A stretch of DNA of 64,000 bases from a virus: positions 24,669 through 88,668 of the IMG/VR virus record IMGVR_UViG_3300042691_016420; one strand, given 5' to 3'. Below, in pieces: positions 40,798 through 54,639 of this stretch. Numbering within the stretch: position 1 is the first letter of the stretch; each line of letters begins with the position of its first letter. A program made the position numbers and the translations under genes. A model generated the notes under the pieces. It did no database searches. It was given only the letters and a program-made list of their open reading frames with translations, and had not been told where the DNA came from.

Positions 40798-43194
40798 CTA
40801 TTTACTTTTTGGTTTATACTTAAGAGCTTTCTTCTTAAGAGAAATTTCTTCTTTCTTAAGAGCAAGTTTATCATTCTCAAGCTTCATCCTATCAGCATGA
40901 ACTCTATTCTGCTGCTCATTCTCTCTAGCCTGCATTTCTTGTTCTACTTGCATCCTACTCTTTTCCATCTCAAGCTTTTGTTGTTTCTCAACTTGCTCAA
41001 ACTGTTGTTTAGATTGTTGTAAAGAAAGTTTAGTAGCTTCCATTACATCAGGAATAGCATTTTGATTTACATCAGGATTACTCATACCAATAGAACCCAA
41101 GGCTCTAATCTCAGCTTCTCTAAGTCTAGCTTCTCTATCAAGTTGTTTCTGAGCCTCATCTCTATCCATCTTCTCTCTAGCAATTTTCTCATTGCTTTGA
41201 ATTTGTTGTTGCTGTACTTGAGTTTGTTGTTCCTGCATCTTCATCTTTCTTTCCTCAGATTGTTTAATAGAGCTTTCTACCTCAGCAATAGAGTTAGATT
41301 TAAGGAGAGTAACAAAGTTAGAGAACTGTAGAGTTCCAGATGAGATACCTTCTTTAGCAAGTCCCTTAAGTTGTTCAAGGATAGCATTATCCTTAATACT
41401 ATCAGAAACATATAACCCAAAGTCAGTATTTAAGAGAGATTTAGTATTTAAAATTGTTCTAGAGAATTCATCAAAAACAAGTTTACCATGCTCACTAGTA
41501 GAGTATGCAATCTTAGCTATCTCAAGAAGATGTTCAAGTACTTTCTCCTTAACCATTGCATGCTCATGAAAGTATATCTCAGTTAGAGCATTACTCTGCA
41601 CTACAGATCTTTCTACACCTCCTACAGTCTCAGAGGAATTAATTTGTCCCTTTCTTTGCCTAGAGATACCAGTAATATTCTCTACTGCTTCCTCAATCTT
41701 ATTAAGCATTGAGAAGTAACCATTTATGGAATTAGAGAGGGTCATATCTATTCCAGTAAACTGGTTAAACTTAGATACAGAAGATGGATCTCCTTCTCTA
41801 CCTTCCTCAGCTGAGTTTACAAATGCAATACCCAGAGTATCAAAGTAATACATCCATTGCTCTACTGTCCATCCCTTACTCTTTGGGATTTGAGCAATAT
41901 CCATTACAAACTTCTTACCTTTTGCCTTAGCAAATTCTAACTCTAGTCTGTACCAGATGATGTTGTAGAGGTATTGATAGGGCTTAATGAGATCAACAAG
42001 TGAGGTCGGCTTACTGTTGATGTTGTTGAATATTCTACCAATGAATGGAAGTTTACACTTGTATGGGTTATCCACTGTGTTGAATTGATAGGGACTCTCG
42101 TAAGCAAAGAAGATTGTTGGCCCAACTTGGACTCCAATCCATGTTCTTGGAATCCAGTTCCACTCAACTGAGATTTGGTCCTTAAGTTCTGCAGGAATTT
42201 TGAAATCCTCATCAACAACTTTCTTTTGTACTTGCCCATTCTTATCAAGGTAAGTTGCAGTCCCAATTTTCTTCTCACTTTTCCATGTGACAAGTTGCAT
42301 GAGAATTTTGGTACCTGTGTAGTTGTAATGTGGGTATGTTGTTGTGATGACTTCTGGGGATTGTCCATATGATGCTGTAGCGTTAAATATTTCTGCACTT
42401 CTTAAGTTCTCTTTATCTTTATCTGTAAGTCTGTCTCCAAACCAATCTAGTATTTGACCTCTATCTAACCACATTCTACCTACTGCCCAATCACAATCCT
42501 CAATAAAGAGTGAGTCCTGGTTCTTATCACACTCAAAGTGTATTGGGTTCCAAGGGATTAAGACAGGTTCATTATTAAAGATACCTGCATAGTACACCTC
42601 TTCTGCACAAGTAAGTGCATTCTGAAAACCTCTGATAAAGTGATTCTTAAGTTTAAGAGACTTCTCAAGATGTTGTAAGAGTTTATTAGCAGTAATCTCT
42701 ACAGAGTTTGTATAAGAGTTGGTAAAGTAATTCTCTACTTCAGCAGGACTCTCAGCTTCTACCTTTTCTCCAAGGGCATTCTTAAGCACTGCAAGATAAG
42801 AATACTCTAAGGCTTCTTTCTTGTCTTGGAGATATTGATTAAACCCTTCTCCAGCAGTGGAGACAACTTTATAGGTAAATGGCCTCTTAAGTTCTTCTCC
42901 AACCAGTTGAAGAACTGAGGAGCGCACAATATTATAGTCTTGAAAGTTAGCAGGAAGATTACCAATGCTATCATGTATATCAACACCATAAGGCTTAGTG
43001 ACATAACTAAAGTCCTCAATGTTGACAATAGAATTAAAGAGATCATAATTAATTTGTTTAGCCTCTCTTGAAGTTCTACTTCCTGAGAGATTGGAGTATG
43101 CTCTACCTACTAGGGCAATAATACATTTCTTTTGCCAGTCTAGGGTTTCCTTAGTCCTTTGAGGTACTCGTTGTTCTGGAAGTGGTGGAATCAT
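40798..43194 (-). CDS. Portal protein
   Basis: 798 aa after terminase. SLVDLIKPYQYLYNIIWYRLE, ITGISRQRKGQI..SETVGGVERSVVQS and a coiled-coil C-terminus are typical of crAss portals. Confidence 0.9.
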   Translation of the reverse strand: MIPPLPEQRVPQRTKETLDWQKKCIIALVGRAYSNLSGSRTSREAKQINYDLFNSIVNIEDFSYVTKPYGVDIHDSIGNLPANFQDYNIVRSSVLQLVGEELKRPFTYKVVSTAGEGFNQYLQDKKEALEYSYLAVLKNALGEKVEAESPAEVENYFTNSYTNSVEITANKLLQHLEKSLKLKNHFIRGFQNALTCAEEVYYAGIFNNEPVLIPWNPIHFECDKNQDSLFIEDCDWAVGRMWLDRGQILDWFGDRLTDKDKENLRSAEIFNATASYGQSPEVITTTYPHYNYTGTKILMQLVTWKSEKKIGTATYLDKNGQVQKKVVDEDFKIPAELKDQISVEWNWIPRTWIGVQVGPTIFFAYESPYQFNTVDNPYKCKLPFIGRIFNNINSKPTSLVDLIKPYQYLYNIIWYRLELEFAKAKGKKFVMDIAQIPKSKGWTVEQWMYYFDTLGIAFVNSAEEGREGDPSSVSKFNQFTGIDMTLSNSINGYFSMLNKIEEAVENITGISRQRKGQINSSETVGGVERSVVQSNALTEIYFHEHAMVKEKVLEHLLEIAKIAYSTSEHGKLVFDEFSRTILNTKSLLNTDFGLYVSDSIKDNAILEQLKGLAKEGISSGTLQFSNFVTLLKSNSIAEVESSIKQSEERKMKMQEQQTQVQQQQIQSNEKIAREKMDRDEAQKQLDREARLREAEIRALGSIGMSNPDVNQNAIPDVMEATKLSLQQSKQQFEQVEKQQKLEMEKSRMQVEQEMQARENEQQNRVHADRMKLENDKLALKKEEISLKKKALKYKPKSK

Positions 43195-45242
43195 TAGTTA
43201 CTAAATAATTTAGAAGAGAAAAAATCTCTGCCATTCCTCTTATACGAGTCTTTAAAAGCAGGTTGTATTCTAGTTAATTCTATACTTCTAATAAGAGCTA
43301 ATGAGAAGGATATAAATCTATCAAAGTTACCTCTACTATTATAAGTAATAAGTTCCTGTAGTAAGCCTACACTCTTTATCTTATATACATTACTCTTACC
43401 ATCTTCATACTCCTCTCTTAACCAGTTATTTACATAGGTAATGAGTTCATTCTTAACAGAGGAATATGAATTCCCGACAACTCTGATACCATAGGTGTTT
43501 GAGTGTTGGTTAGAAGCAGCCTTGACAATACTAGGCGTTCTGGATAATAGATGTAACTTATGTTTGTTCTCACAGTGAGTTTTGAAATTGTTGATGTTAT
43601 TCTCATATAGACAACTTGCATTATAGTACTCTATTAATAAGATACACTGGTCATAGAACTCTTTAAAGTTTTGTGGCCTACCTGTGTACTCTGCAACTGG
43701 AAGATCATGGGTTTCTTCTCCAATAGCATACCTTTTAAAGATAAAGAGTGAGCCAAGAGACTCAGAGTAATTAGCTTCATCTGTTGCATATGGATCTAGC
43801 CCTGCAGTATATAAGTTGTACGATGTACCTGGGGTTGGTTTCTCCCATATCTGTATACAACCACTCTTATCTAGGCTTTTGTCTCTATATTCTAAAGGTC
43901 TGAGAGACAGGTCTGGGATAAACTCTGCATTACCTCTCTCATCATAAGACATTCTACCACAGATACCTTTATACTCATCTTTAGTCATGCATAGACCTAG
44001 CTGTTTACGCAAGTCCTCTGTAGGAAATACATTATTAGAGATGATTTGGAAAGCCTCAGATGGTGACCAAGCATACTCAGTAGTATGTCTTAAATATTCC
44101 TCAGGAGATTTTGCTTTAGCTTTCTTATTCTCTCTAAGTTTAGTCAAGAGTTCCTTGGCTCTTGGTATATCTGAGTTACCTTCCTTATCATAAGCACCTT
44201 CATAGTTCTGATACATAGGAAAGAAGAATCCTGCAGGTTTCTCAGGCAGTCCATCCTCATCCCATACATTCTCAAAGGGCATCATATTGTAATTATCTGG
44301 GTTATAGTACATTTCTGCAAAATCAATAGTACCTGCTTCCATATCACCACCAGTACCAAAGACAATCATCATCCCAGTATAGTAATCACCAGCCTTAATA
44401 GAGGGTTCCATAGCATAGTAACTCTCATTCCAATTAATGAAGGTACCTGCTTCTTCTACAATTATCTTACTAGCATCAGCTCCCCTTGCAGCATCAGCAT
44501 TGTTCTGAAAAGAGATACAAGTAATAGCACTTTGAAAGCCTTTTGTAAGTTCTGTACCATCCTCAGTATACTCAATAAAACCACTCTTAATTCTACCATC
44601 AGCAATCTTATTAACAAGACGTGTTCTCTTGAAGGCAGGACAGTGCTCATTTAAGTGATTGAGCATATCCATAACCTTAGTAAAGATACCAATCTCTGAG
44701 AATAGGTACTTCTTATCATAAGCAGCAACAAGGGTAAGAGACTTTTTGATGAAGGTATATTCCCAAGCAATAGTAGCAGCATTCTTATAAGAGAATCCTC
44801 TTCTTCTTGCCTTACCTACTATCATACTCTTACCTCCCTCTGTCCAAAGTACTTTATTGTTTAGGTGTAAAGTAGGTATAAGAGCAGGATCTATACCATT
44901 CTCTGCAATCTCTAGAAACCAGAAGTACTCAAAGTCACCATCCCAAAAATCAGGGAGGAGAAATCCTTTGGATACCTTTCTCTTACCTCTATTATCATCA
45001 GTTAAGTTTACCTTATTGATGAGGCAGTAGTTTAGATAGAAGTAATGCTTACCAGTAATCTTAGCACCTGAGGTTTCATAGCCATTTATACACCTATTGT
45101 ACTCCTCATCCCAAAACCTATCAAATTCCAGTGTTCCAGGAAGAGCATCAGTGTATCTACCAGTAGTAATAAATCTATTACCAACTTCTCTAAAGGGTTC
45201 TGTATTAACCCAGATACCATTCTTGTTTCTTACTGCTCCCAT
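43194..45242 (-). CDS. terL: Terminase large subunit
   Basis: Walker A GKARRRGFSYK, Walker B IIVEEAG, FGTGG coupling motif, and RNase H-like AGLDPY...NFDR. Confidence 0.92.
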   Translation of the reverse strand: MGAVRNKNGIWVNTEPFREVGNRFITTGRYTDALPGTLEFDRFWDEEYNRCINGYETSGAKITGKHYFYLNYCLINKVNLTDDNRGKRKVSKGFLLPDFWDGDFEYFWFLEIAENGIDPALIPTLHLNNKVLWTEGGKSMIVGKARRRGFSYKNAATIAWEYTFIKKSLTLVAAYDKKYLFSEIGIFTKVMDMLNHLNEHCPAFKRTRLVNKIADGRIKSGFIEYTEDGTELTKGFQSAITCISFQNNADAARGADASKIIVEEAGTFINWNESYYAMEPSIKAGDYYTGMMIVFGTGGDMEAGTIDFAEMYYNPDNYNMMPFENVWDEDGLPEKPAGFFFPMYQNYEGAYDKEGNSDIPRAKELLTKLRENKKAKAKSPEEYLRHTTEYAWSPSEAFQIISNNVFPTEDLRKQLGLCMTKDEYKGICGRMSYDERGNAEFIPDLSLRPLEYRDKSLDKSGCIQIWEKPTPGTSYNLYTAGLDPYATDEANYSESLGSLFIFKRYAIGEETHDLPVAEYTGRPQNFKEFYDQCILLIEYYNASCLYENNINNFKTHCENKHKLHLLSRTPSIVKAASNQHSNTYGIRVVGNSYSSVKNELITYVNNWLREEYEDGKSNVYKIKSVGLLQELITYNSRGNFDRFISFSLALIRSIELTRIQPAFKDSYKRNGRDFFSSKLFSN

Positions 45243-45748
45243 CTGTTAATCTTTGCTCCAGCTCTTACCTTATTCTGTGCTACATTCTCAGATTCTACTT
45301 TATCTTTTAAGCCCTCTAGAGTAGTAATAACTTGCAGGGTATTCTTTAGTGCATCAGTAACTTCCTTAACCTTATATACAGGATTACCTCTAGCATCTAA
45401 GAGTGCATAATCTACATTTCTAAAGTAAGCTCTAGTTTGATTGGCTGCATGTATGGCATCCTGAAGGTAGCGCATATTAAAGCTGTAATTAAGTTCTTTA
45501 TATTTCTCAATAGCATCCTTTAGATCTTGAGTAAGTTCTACTCCTAAATCTTTATGCAGTGCAGCTATCTTTTGTTCCTCATCATAAGCTCTATAAGGAG
45601 AGTTAAAGTCAGCAAATAGGTATACGTACTTAAAAAGTTGTATACCATTATCCTTTTTACTACTATCCTGCAGCTTCTTAAACTCTGGAATCAAGAGGCA
45701 AGCCTCATGCAAATTTACAGTAGCTCCATTTATCTCAATTATTTTCAT
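45230..45748 (-). CDS. Conserved crAss protein upstream of TerL (possible small terminase)
   Basis: 172 aa, YVYLFADFNSPY motif, position directly upstream of TerL. Confidence 0.5.
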   Translation of the reverse strand: MKIIEINGATVNLHEACLLIPEFKKLQDSSKKDNGIQLFKYVYLFADFNSPYRAYDEEQKIAALHKDLGVELTQDLKDAIEKYKELNYSFNMRYLQDAIHAANQTRAYFRNVDYALLDARGNPVYKVKEVTDALKNTLQVITTLEGLKDKVESENVAQNKVRAGAKINRWEQ

Positions 45749-46998: not shown

Positions 46999-47007
46999 AT
47001 AAAGTTT

Positions 47008-48340: not shown

Positions 48341-48476
48341 CTTCTAAACAGAAACTTCTAGAAACTTTCATAAGTGGTTGATAATCACACTAAACCTTTC
48401 TCACTTAAGTTTCAGTTTTCAGGCTATTACTGATTGTTATTTCATTCAATAATTATAGCCAAACTTCTATTTGCAT

Positions 48477-48610
48477 TTAATTGTAATCAAAACAAGAAGC
48501 TAGAGATCATACCTCTATATTGGTCAATAAAAGACCCTAATAGTTGGAGTCATTCTCCAAAGTCACTGATTGCAATTAATAAAAGTCCTAAGCATGACTA
48601 TAAACTGCTT
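48477..48610 (+). ncRNA. Putative structured RNA (multibranch plus H-type pseudoknot)
   Basis: 13-bp closing stem 48477-48489/48567-48579 enclosing three hairpins, then AGTC-CTAAGCAT-GACT whose loop pairs with TGCTT. Confidence 0.45.
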
Positions 48611-48646
48611 TTGTTTTATGTTTAATTATTATTTATTCACAAACCA

Positions 48647-48868
48647 ATGAAAAAGTTATTTGTCCTCATTGCAGCATGTGCTGCATTATCCTCTTGTTCA
48701 GATCTTACAAGAGATGCTAAAAAAGTAAGAGTTAAATCTATAAGATTTGATAATTACAAAGCACAATATACAGCTAGTATAGCTGTTGATGAAATGATAG
48801 TTGATACCATCTTTAATGTTGGAGATACTATTCAAGAGAATAACAAGTTGTACATTATTGTAAAGTAA
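48647..48868 (+). CDS. Small lipoprotein
   Basis: MKKLFVLIAACAALSSC lipoprotein signal. Confidence 0.65.
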   Translation: MKKLFVLIAACAALSSCSDLTRDAKKVRVKSIRFDNYKAQYTASIAVDEMIVDTIFNVGDTIQENNKLYIIVK

Positions 48869-48869
48869 T

Positions 48870-48998
48870 ATGCATACCTTAACTCTATCTCATACTCAGT
48901 GGAAAAGATTTTCACAGATTATGACAAACAAGCACAGAATTTATTCTCTTATGTACTCTATGGGTTACTATACCTATAAAGTATTATACATAGGATAA
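48870..48998 (+). CDS. Small hypothetical protein (42 aa)
   Basis: MHTLTLSHTQWKRF...VLYIG, between the lipoprotein gene and a terminator hairpin. Confidence 0.4.
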   Translation: MHTLTLSHTQWKRFSQIMTNKHRIYSLMYSMGYYTYKVLYIG

Positions 48999-49003
48999 AT
49001 TAC

Positions 49004-49037
49004 AGGAATACAGGTAGTAATATCTGTATTCCTTTTT
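49004..49037 (+). terminator. Terminator-like hairpin abutting twister 1
   Basis: AGGAATACAGGTA-GTAA-TATCTGTATTCCT followed by TTTT. Confidence 0.6.
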
Positions 49038-49106
49038 GTTAATGCAGCCAGATATTTATATCTGAGAGTCCAAAGCCTCTAAAAGCCAAAATGCAGATGG
49101 ACAAAA
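49034..49106 (+). ncRNA. Twister self-cleaving ribozyme, type P1 (copy 1)
   Basis: P1 TTTTGT/ACAAAA; U^AA; P2 TGCA/TGCA; GC; P3 CAGATA/TATCTG; P4 AGAG/CTCT with loop TCCAAAGC; GA-TGG pseudoknot partner. Matches twister env22 element by element. Confidence 0.88.
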
Positions 49107-49211
49107 CTCTAGCTAGAGTAACTTTAGAAAAGGTAAATTGCTTAAACACTTTCCGTTTAAGAGATGTAAATTCATCAACCTTTTCTTCTTACACCAGTAG
49201 CAATACTGGTG

Positions 49212-49350
49212 TTTGTTAATGCACCATAACTCACTTCCCAAGGGTGAGCAGTTGTAATAACACTTGTATAGGGTAATGCAGGTAAAGACTTAACCATAGG
49301 GGAATATACTTCGACTATATGGTTATTACAACTGAGTGCAGAGGGGCAAA
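49212..49350 (+). ncRNA. Twister self-cleaving ribozyme, type P1 with large P5 (copy 2)
   Basis: P1 TTTGT/GCAAA; U^AA; P2 TGCA/TGCA; CC pairs with GG of loop TCCCAAGG (compensatory to GC/GC in copy 1); P4 CTCAC/GTGAG; P5 CAGTTGTAA/TTACAACTG; GA-GGG. Confidence 0.8.
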
Positions 49351-49385
49351 TTAAATGTTTAACAATAACCAATTAAGTAAACAAC

Positions 49386-49493
49386 ATGGATAAGTATAGA
49401 TCTTTAGCTGCTGATTTATTTATAACAGCAGTTGTAACACTAAGTTTATTTGTAATAGTAATGAAAATCTTAATCTTAATAGTAAAACTATGA
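49386..49493 (+). CDS. Small single-TM membrane peptide (35 aa)
   Basis: MDKYRSLAADLFITAVVTLSLFVIVMKILILIVKL with an A-rich leader. Not in the ORF track. Confidence 0.5.
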   Translation: MDKYRSLAADLFITAVVTLSLFVIVMKILILIVKL

Positions 49494-49663
49494 GTAAAGA
49501 ACAAGAGTGGTGGCTGTATAGGTCACCACTTATTAAACAACAACTGCAGGTAAAGTATTTTCCTGAGACTAATTATAATTATCTTTCACAAACGCAAATT
49601 CAAAAAATTTATGAACAAGAAAAACAGCAACAGAATATGGGGCATAAAGTCCTTAGTAATTAA
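49490..49663 (+). CDS. Small hypothetical protein (57 aa)
   Basis: MSKEQEWWLYRSPLIKQQL..., with an ATGA overlap on the previous stop. Confidence 0.5.
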   Translation: MSKEQEWWLYRSPLIKQQLQVKYFPETNYNYLSQTQIQKIYEQEKQQQNMGHKVLSN

Positions 49664-50006
49664 TGATCTTAGAATATATACTATTTGCGTTAGAGTAAAT
49701 AGTAATTCTATCACTCATAACAAAGTTATTAATGATCCATTTTGGAAGACTAGACATACCTTAGGTATGCATAATAGTACTTCTAAACTGGAATTTATGC
49801 ATACTACAACAAACTTTGATGAAGCAGTTGAGGCAATAAATAGTCTTACTAAGATACTATTTGCTCATAAGATTGCCAAATCCTTACTCTCAGAATATGC
49901 ATTACAAAATAATGTAAAGAATGAGATTGTAAGAGATGTTGTTTCTGAGATGAATAAGATACATCAAGAAGAAACAGCTTTACCTTTTAATGATTATATC
50001 TTTTAA
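49611..50006 (+). CDS. Hypothetical protein
   Basis: 131 aa ORF in the early operon. Confidence 0.55.
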   Translation: MNKKNSNRIWGIKSLVINDLRIYTICVRVNSNSITHNKVINDPFWKTRHTLGMHNSTSKLEFMHTTTNFDEAVEAINSLTKILFAHKIAKSLLSEYALQNNVKNEIVRDVVSEMNKIHQEETALPFNDYIF

Positions 50007-51940: not shown

Positions 51941-52012
51941 GGCCTCATAGTTAAATGGATATAACACCTCTCTTCTAAAGAGGATTTCCAAGTTCGATTC
52001 TTGGTGAGGCTA
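51941..52012 (+). tRNA. tRNA-Arg (anticodon UCU)
   Basis: GGCCTCA/TGAGGCT acceptor, GTTA/TAAC D-stem, CCTCT-CT[TCT]AA-AGAGG anticodon arm, CCAAG-TTCGATT-CTTGG T-arm. CCA is not encoded. Confidence 0.92.
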
Positions 52013-54533: not shown

Positions 54534-54639
54534 AGTCAGGTGGCGGAATTGGTAGACGCTATCTAAAAGATTATATGAAAGGGTGATATAAGAATGAAAT
54601 GAATAAACCTATTTACAGGTTCGAATCCTGTCCTGACTA
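54534..54639 (+). ncRNA. tRNA-like element 1 (Leu-like D-arm, no valid anticodon arm)
   Basis: AGTCAGG/CCTGACT acceptor, TGGCGGAATTGGTAGACGC D-arm, ACAGG-TTCGAAT-CCTGT T-arm, and a ~55-nt A-rich middle. Confidence 0.7.

Follow-up and report, generated by a model that had tools for sequence, protein, structure and literature searches.

Two twister ribozyme folds of different subtypes, each directly behind a hairpin, in the small-gene block of a freshwater crAss-like phage

Twister ribozymes are described by a consensus in which the stems P1, P2 and P4 are essential and P0, P3 and P5 optional, and a guanine (G45/G48) and the adenine at the cleavage site have been named as candidate base and acid (PMC5408937). 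Tandem same-strand ribozymes in phage operons are already known for hammerheads; these were proposed by Perreault et al. (2011) to process long transcripts (PMC3088659), and cleavage by tandem hammerheads was shown in vitro and in vivo (PMC3088659; PMC6765202). The genomic neighbourhoods of twisters and hammerheads have been described, and processing of phage transcripts by clustered ribozymes was proposed there as well (PMC6765202). Small non-coding RNAs bounded by two ribozymes 186–399 nt apart are found in retrozymes and between totivirus pairs (PMC7229834; PMC13725137), and in the Tornado system both ribozymes leave the excised RNA, whose ends are brought to RtcB by a designed stem (PMC13622603). 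In Tornado constructs expressed in human cells, the upstream fragment is removed more slowly on account of its 2',3'-cyclic phosphate (PMC13622603).

The locus reported here was analysed within a stretch of 64,000 nt of viral DNA (the window, to which all positions refer). Elements and neighbourhoods of this kind are already known, and the form found here is a variant. As in the clustered ribozymes of phages and prophages (PMC3088659, PMC6765202), which are proposed to divide long transcripts into shorter messages, several ribozymes lie on the same strand of one transcription unit; the locus differs from these clusters in that the pair consists of two twister subtypes, that the carrier is a freshwater crAss-like phage, and that 107 nt of structured orphan RNA, and no gene, lie between the two ribozymes. 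This absence of a gene between the cuts is what is particular to the window.

The window comprises bases 24669–88668 of an 88.7-kb IMG/VR virus record (IMGVR_UViG_3300042691_016420) that is estimated to be 65% complete, and its layout is crAss-like. The genes for portal and large terminase (Table 1) belong to a minus-strand block that also carries an ORF of 3903 aa. A plus-strand block with many small genes, an operon that is probably early, begins near position 47000, and both twisters lie about 2 kb inside it on the plus strand, flanked by a conserved ORF upstream and a conserved block of small genes downstream. Homologues of the upstream ORF with an identical ending precede the hairpin-1 homologues in two related loci (L005 and L010), and CAAATTAAATG follows immediately 3' of twister 2 in the window as well as in L005, L007 and L013. 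DNA nearly identical to the stretch was present in freshwater metagenomes; contigs assembled from public runs contained the stretch in metagenomes labelled freshwater or 'fungus' and in a single metatranscriptome, from freshwater, and a search of positions 48600–49700 against a phage GenBank collection returned no DNA match. The RNA run (X17) consists of contigs that leave 49008–49175 uncovered and list neither ends at the predicted cuts nor a joint of 49217 to 49041; it is neutral on cleavage or circles, since contigs cannot reveal ends or junctions.

Table 1. Positions of the features of the twister locus and its surroundings in the window.
Feature	Position	Strand	Basis or remark
Portal gene	40798–43194	-	minus-strand block
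Large terminase gene	43194–45242	-	minus-strand block
Conserved 42-aa ORF	48870–48998	+	ORF list; ends 5 nt before hairpin 1
Hairpin 1, 13-bp stem, terminator-like	49004–49033	+	terminator scan, fold
Twister 1, type P1, with P3, without P5	49034–49106	+	Rfam RF03160 alignment
Twister 1, P1	49034–49039/49101–49106	+	
Twister 1, predicted cut	U49040^A49041	+	
Twister 1, P2	49043–46/49092–95	+	
Twister 1, P3	49049–54/49059–64	+	
Twister 1, P4	49065–67/49078–80	+	
Twister 1, pseudoknots	G49047-C49048:G49075-C49076; C49070-C49071-A49072:U49098-G49099-G49100	+	
Orphan structured spacer	49107–49190	+	folds
Spacer, hairpin	49107–49118	+	
Spacer, three-way junction	49126–49186	+	arms 49141–61 and 49163–76
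Hairpin 2, 9-bp stem, GCAA loop	49191–49212	+	terminator scan, fold
Twister 2, type P1, without P3, long P5 arm (60-nt insert)	49212–49350	+	family alignment A1, model R1, descriptor
Twister 2, P1	49212–16/49346–50	+	
Twister 2, predicted cut	U49217^A49218	+	
Twister 2, P2	49220–23/49337–40	+	
Twister 2, P4	49230–34/49244–48	+	
Twister 2, P5	49250–61/49322–33	+	12 bp, carrying the 60-nt insert
Twister 2, pseudoknots	CC49224–25:GG49242–43; CCC49237–39:GGG49343–45	+	
Downstream message	49355–49493	+	sequence, ORF list
12-codon mini-ORF	49355–49393	+	begins 5 nt past P1 of twister 2
Gene for 35-aa membrane peptide	49386–49493	+	start overlapped by the stop of the mini-ORF

The 88.7-kb genome was searched with a strict descriptor of our own, which required P1, AA, P2, both pseudoknots, P4 and GA(G/U)GG, and exactly two sites were found, namely twisters 1 and 2. 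Both copies have P1, P2 and P4 in canonical order around a UAA cleavage loop, two pseudoknots tying L4 to L1 and L2, and a core of U^AA, (G/U)UCC(C/A)AAG and GA(G/U)GG. The G directly after P2 is the catalytic guanine. A first-pass annotation had called both twisters from the sequence alone, and the two calls are upheld, twister 1 by its alignment to Rfam and twister 2 by covariation within its family (alignment A1, below), with both folds present in the sequence. The cleavage positions it had given, 49040/41 and 49217/18, match the predicted folds of both copies, and the differences that it had seen between the pseudoknots of the two (GC:GC versus CC:GG; CCA:UGG versus CCC:GGG) are real. The check that it had proposed with the Rfam twister-P1 covariance model came out differently for the two copies: twister 1 was matched with a score under the cut-off, and twister 2 was missed.

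For twister 1, positions 1–68 of the RF03160 (twister-P1) model aligned full length to 49036–49104 on the plus strand with 48.5 bits, at E-values of 9.4e-10 (600 nt searched), 2.9e-8 (18.5 kb) and 3.4e-11 (whole 88.7-kb record). The score lies below the curated gathering score of 67.2 bits, which is unusually high for a cut-off and represents a curation threshold and no structural feature; a default Rfam scan of the window at gathering thresholds gave tRNA only and no twister. L4 deviates once, with CCA for CCC, and the 3' strand compensates with UGG for GGG. Compensatory differences in P1 and P3 were found in close relatives of this subtype on viral contigs (L131, L132, L135 and L143). By structure both motifs are twisters, and twister 1 is a new member.

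Twister 2 was recognized by other means, as Rfam gave no match on 49212–49350 at E-values up to 10 and likewise none on its shortest homologue (94 nt, in L013). Its 5' part reads UUUGU-U^AA-UGCA-CC-AUAA, its P4 region CUCAC[UUCCCAAGG]GUGAG and its 3' part GAG-UGCA-GAGGG-GCAAA. Thirty distinct copies of the family were collected from IMG/VR viral contigs, and 25 of them were aligned (A1); since an exact 14/15-mer was used to collect them, P2 and the adjoining CC are invariant by selection and uninformative. In A1, 92% of the cells pair (P2 and P4 100%, P1 84%) and 13 pairs change on both sides, with such changes at four of the five pairs of P1, four of the five of P4 and one pseudoknot pair. 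The pseudoknot columns 32–189 hold C-G in 21 copies, A-U in four and a mispair in none. As controls, none of 500 shuffles reached the observed values, and partners slid by 1–3 columns paired at 32–49%. A covariance model built from A1 (R1) found twister 2 as its sole match in the window (49208–49354, 126.9 bits, a score that is high by construction, the window copy belonging to A1) and missed twister 1, so that the pair is to be regarded as two ribozymes of different subtypes and not as a recent duplication.

Compared with RF03160, both copies show the P1-UAA-P2 layout, the L4 loop (G/U)UCC(C/A)AAG.., the 3' GA(G/U)GG, the two pseudoknots and the U^A cut, with P3 in twister 1 and P5 in twister 2. 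Twister 2 differs from the Rfam family by the lack of P3, by a 12-bp P5 with a 60-nt insert, by CC:GG in place of GC:GC, and by GAG, not UAAA, ahead of the 3' strand of P2. In contigs of run X1 the twister-2 core (49212–49259 and 49324–49350) had a depth of about 1460 versus about 16 for the flanks, i.e. about 90×, and occurred with many different P5 inserts and neighbours; the twister-2 form is very common among the phages of those samples.

Several tRNA-related elements were recorded alongside the ribozymes. A tRNA-Arg gene lies downstream of the twisters at 51941 on the same strand, and tRNA genes were found 1–4 kb downstream of a twister, on its strand, in at least 10 other loci as well as in the window. 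A tRNA-like element of 106 nt with a large insert (54534–54639, plus strand) scored 38.7 bits in a permissive Rfam scan (cut-off 29) and was not called by ARAGORN. In L059 (3230–3422, minus strand) only 3 nt separate the end of a twister-2-type ribozyme from a tRNA gene that follows it in the same orientation, and the viral contig of L076 (885–1274, minus strand), which carries a twister-2-type ribozyme, also encodes a tmRNA (RF00023, 59.9 bits, cut-off 47).

Each of the two twisters stands immediately behind a hairpin. Hairpin 1 joins P1 of twister 1 without a linker, and the UUUUUGUU that follows 49004–49033 is the 5' strand of that P1; the first-pass annotation had noted that the U-tract of the upstream terminator overlaps P1, and the U-rich tail indeed serves as both. 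Hairpin 2 is joined to P1 of twister 2 in the same manner, its U-rich tail being the 5' strand of P1. Homologues of hairpin 1 were found in L005, L010 and L017. Among 41 sites chosen by a loose twister pattern (one of them visibly spurious), 44% had an upstream hairpin at least as stable as -10 kcal/mol that ended no more than 10 nt from the cut, compared with 13% of random positions. The 5.5-kb region around the locus contains 14 terminator-like hairpins where 1.7 are expected, and several of those on the plus strand have the common tail TTTTTGTT(T). Given this abundance and the common tail, the hairpins before the twisters look like the ordinary intercistronic hairpins of the phage, whose U-tract is used by P1. 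In other twisters of both subtypes the order is likewise hairpin, twister and then 30–90 nt to the next ORF. The optional stem P0 of twisters lies 5' of P1, and hairpin 1, as well as hairpin 2, may be such a P0. Further upstream in the window (48577–48613), before a lipoprotein gene, a small hairpin has a loop that can pair with the tail behind a conserved UAAAC linker, forming a putative pseudoknot. The same arrangement was seen just upstream of twisters in L061, L111, L133, L134, L137, L140 and L142, in several unrelated phages directly before the twister, with the loops AAGCA, AGCA, AACA or GGCA and compensatory changes between loci; it could act as a transcription signal or belong to a P0/L0 stem-loop.

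For comparison of the locus between phages, 17 related loci were fetched via a 172-aa ORF at 45230–45748. A twister-2 orthologue is present at the matching place in five of them (L004, L005, L007, L013 and L017); in L013 all changes in P4 are compensated, and in L017 so is the change in a pseudoknot pair. A hairpin of very different sequence stands at the place of hairpin 2 in these five relatives, and in all of them it directly adjoins the U-rich 5' strand of P1. The five lack both twister 1 and the spacer, of which no homologue was found anywhere searched. In L017 the hairpin-1 homologue is fused straight to twister 2, as in the window with 177 nt taken out, and the boundaries of this difference fall within a 12-nt direct repeat, TTTGTTAATGCA, that flanks the 177-nt unit. 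In L005 a gene sits between hairpin 1 and the twister-2 unit, and in L010 the slot holds two ORFs and no twister. From these varied contents the locus is understood as a mosaic slot, with recurring hairpins and ribozymes and changing content. A DNA contig of run X1 joins 48619 to 49026, with 406 nt (lipoprotein gene, 42-aa ORF) skipped or replaced, and this joint is another sign of mosaic variants at hairpin and motif boundaries. In L008 a hatchet ribozyme (RF02678, 271–405, minus strand, 79.1 bits, cut-off 51) lies a few hundred bases downstream of a homologue of 48371–48466, in the zone that holds the twisters in the window.

A search for paired twisters in related genomes had been proposed in the first-pass annotation, and the outcome was negative: the relatives carry twister 2 only, and the tandem found elsewhere is of another composition. 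The tandem pattern TGCAGATGG-N(100-130)-TTAATGCACCATAAC had two matches in JGI metagenome contigs, both by chance in coding sequence. A looser tandem pattern gave 90 matches in viral contigs; 80 of these loci were passed through the descriptor, which found a full twister in two, and a single one, L192, was a true tandem, made up of two twisters of the twister-2 type. In L192 (2617–3060, plus strand; IMGVR_UViG_3300005739_000030) the cleavage sites are about 327 nt apart, each twister is followed by GAAGAATACTTCAGCA, and the first has a poor P1.

It is considered rather probable that two hairpin-plus-twister units process an early polycistronic transcript, that they were brought together by mosaic recombination, and that the 177-nt RNA is a by-product. 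Each twister would fold while the polycistronic RNA is being synthesized and would cut itself at U^A, 7 nt behind hairpin 1 and 5 nt behind hairpin 2, respectively. The upstream RNA would then finish with a stable hairpin and a short U-rich tail that bears a 2',3'-cyclic phosphate, an end nearly equal to the product of intrinsic termination at that hairpin, and the downstream RNA would begin with a 5'-OH and the compact ribozyme fold right behind it. This agrees with the role suggested for clustered ribozymes in phages, in which the shorter messages each have a stability of their own (PMC3088659; PMC6765202). The conserved 42-aa ORF would be the upstream cistron, its message stopping at the first cut. 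Cutting would uncouple the fates of neighbouring cistrons and make 3'-end formation independent of the polymerase. Twister 1 and the orphan spacer would occupy a slot that contains a gene in L005 and is empty in L017; the two units would be only 177 nt apart because the region is a recombination mosaic, and the 177-nt RNA is therefore most likely a linear by-product of processing. Directly seen are the folds, the covariation in the twister-2 family, the hairpins adjoining P1 and the synteny of the twister-2 unit; cleavage in vivo, an effect on message stability and the status of the 177-nt RNA as a by-product are inferred. Against the processing model it can be held that efficient termination at hairpin 1 would allow few transcripts to reach twister 1, and that twister 1 scores under the Rfam cut-off and twister 2 is missed by Rfam.

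The release of RNA 49041–49217, as the first-pass annotation had supposed, follows directly if both ribozymes cut, the predicted cuts being 177 nt apart. This RNA would consist of twister 1, the three-way junction and hairpin 2; the ribozyme itself makes up 64 of the 177 nt, and the spacer structures described at first reading were found again in the folds. The spacer (49107–49190) folds at -19.0 kcal/mol compared with -9.4 ± 2.7 for mononucleotide shuffles (z about -3.5), and the whole 361 nt fold at z = -5.6. A blastn search of the fetched loci, about 2 Mb in all, gave no homologue of the spacer, and its stem pattern had nothing but chance matches in IMG/VR viral contigs. A further ribozyme within the spacer was rejected, as no Rfam family matched there with an E-value below 1, and a 42-aa ORF at 49091–49219 was discarded as a gene, its AUG lying inside P2 of twister 1 and no homologue having been found. 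The unit length of 177 nt equals 3 × 59, and one frame has a single stop, a UAA that spans the cleavage site or junction; this is probably due to chance (about 0.07 expected over six frames).

The strong folding of the spacer is something that a mere by-product would not need, and it is a reason to consider that the 177-nt RNA is a functional, stable and linear small RNA of the phage, which the twisters release with protected ends (a 5'-OH and the ribozyme fold at one, a hairpin and the cyclic phosphate at the other). Such a role would agree with the hairpin, three-way junction and GNRA hairpin of the product, with the lack of a credible gene between the cuts, and with the resistance to exonucleases expected of both ends. 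It is nevertheless thought unlikely, as the spacer and the tandem layout are absent from the relatives, IMG/VR records and JGI metagenome contigs searched and thus receive no support from conservation, and as so much of the product is the ribozyme alone.

A further possibility is that one or both motifs are inactive relics and that the hairpins are simply intrinsic terminators that separate small genes. Twister 1 is confined to the genome of the window and lies under the Rfam cut-off, and large inserts or a broken pseudoknot pair occur in some members of the twister-2 family, e.g. L004 and L085, all of which would fit decay. On the other hand, all capital (strongly conserved) positions of the Rfam consensus are kept in twister 1 or compensated (C to A with G to U), and the core of twister 2 is near-invariant across many unrelated contexts, with changes that are compensatory, which makes relics very unlikely.

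A further reading has the released RNA closed into a circle, by the RtcB of the host or by a reversed twister reaction in the manner of Tornado or the retrozymes; the first-pass annotation had regarded the locus as a possible excision and circularization cassette. A maintained cassette of this sort is not borne out: the tandem pair lacks conservation, no homologue of the spacer was found, twister 1 is retained in the product, and neither RtcB nor RNA ligase was found in the phage record. Neither does the comparison with Tornado carry over: twisters on both sides of an RNA are predicted to leave a 5'-OH and a 2',3'-cyclic phosphate here as there (PMC13622603), but both are of type P1, so that the 5' ribozyme (49041–49106) stays at the 5' end of the product, where it would be lost in Tornado. 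The ends have the right chemistry, and an RtcB is encoded by Bacteroides thetaiotaomicron, one of the control genomes; RtcB (PF01139) and RNA ligase (PF09414) were both absent from the 88.7-kb record (estimated 65% complete). The only end pairing in the 177-nt product comprises 5 bp, between the 3' tail UUUGU (49212–16) and ACAAA (49101–05), and is no end-joining stem of the designed Tornado kind; it is twister 1's own P1, rebuilt with U49217 beside A49041. This re-pairing makes ligation geometrically possible and is why a small probability is kept for a circle, and yet it restores the cleavage site, so that a circle, with the complete twister 1 and its substrate inside, would cut itself open again. 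The unit has TTTGTTAATGCA on both sides and, as in retrozymes and totivirus pairs (PMC7229834; PMC13725137), two ribozymes bound a small non-coding RNA whose length is a multiple of three; tandem pairs 186–399 nt apart are tied to small circles in retrozymes and are predicted in totiviruses (PMC13725137). Those systems, however, are eukaryotic retroelements or RNA viruses, and the retrozyme circles have been observed and can adopt rod-like folds, whereas the carrier here is a DNA phage, with neither a repeat family nor a reverse transcriptase context, and the predicted fold offers no rod-like alternative in which the ribozyme could be hidden. Circles from tandem phage hammerheads were sought by Perreault et al. 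and none were found (PMC3088659). Together with the lack of conservation of the tandem pair, this leaves a circle highly improbable. Least probable, with only a very slim chance, is that the 177-nt unit is a ribozyme-bounded element inserted at a pre-existing hairpin-plus-twister cleavage site and closing reversibly into a viroid-like circle, for which the flanking direct repeat, the appearance of L017 as an empty site and the 3' tail rebuilding P1 of twister 1 can be cited and which, if true, would amount to a retrozyme-like entity carried by a DNA phage.

The role of twisters in bacteria and phages is open (PMC6765202, PMC5408937), and the locus provides a compact natural test case for it, with two twister subtypes that each stand directly behind a hairpin and with relatives as natural comparison states: a single twister in L017 and L005, no twister in L010 and a hatchet ribozyme in place of it in L008. 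The Rfam models overlook the long-P5 form of twister, which is very common among lake crAss-like phages; standard annotation consequently undercounts ribozymes in these phages. The position of a hairpin before the cut suggests that self-cleavage could yield a termination-like, hairpin-protected 3' end, whichever polymerase transcribes the operon.
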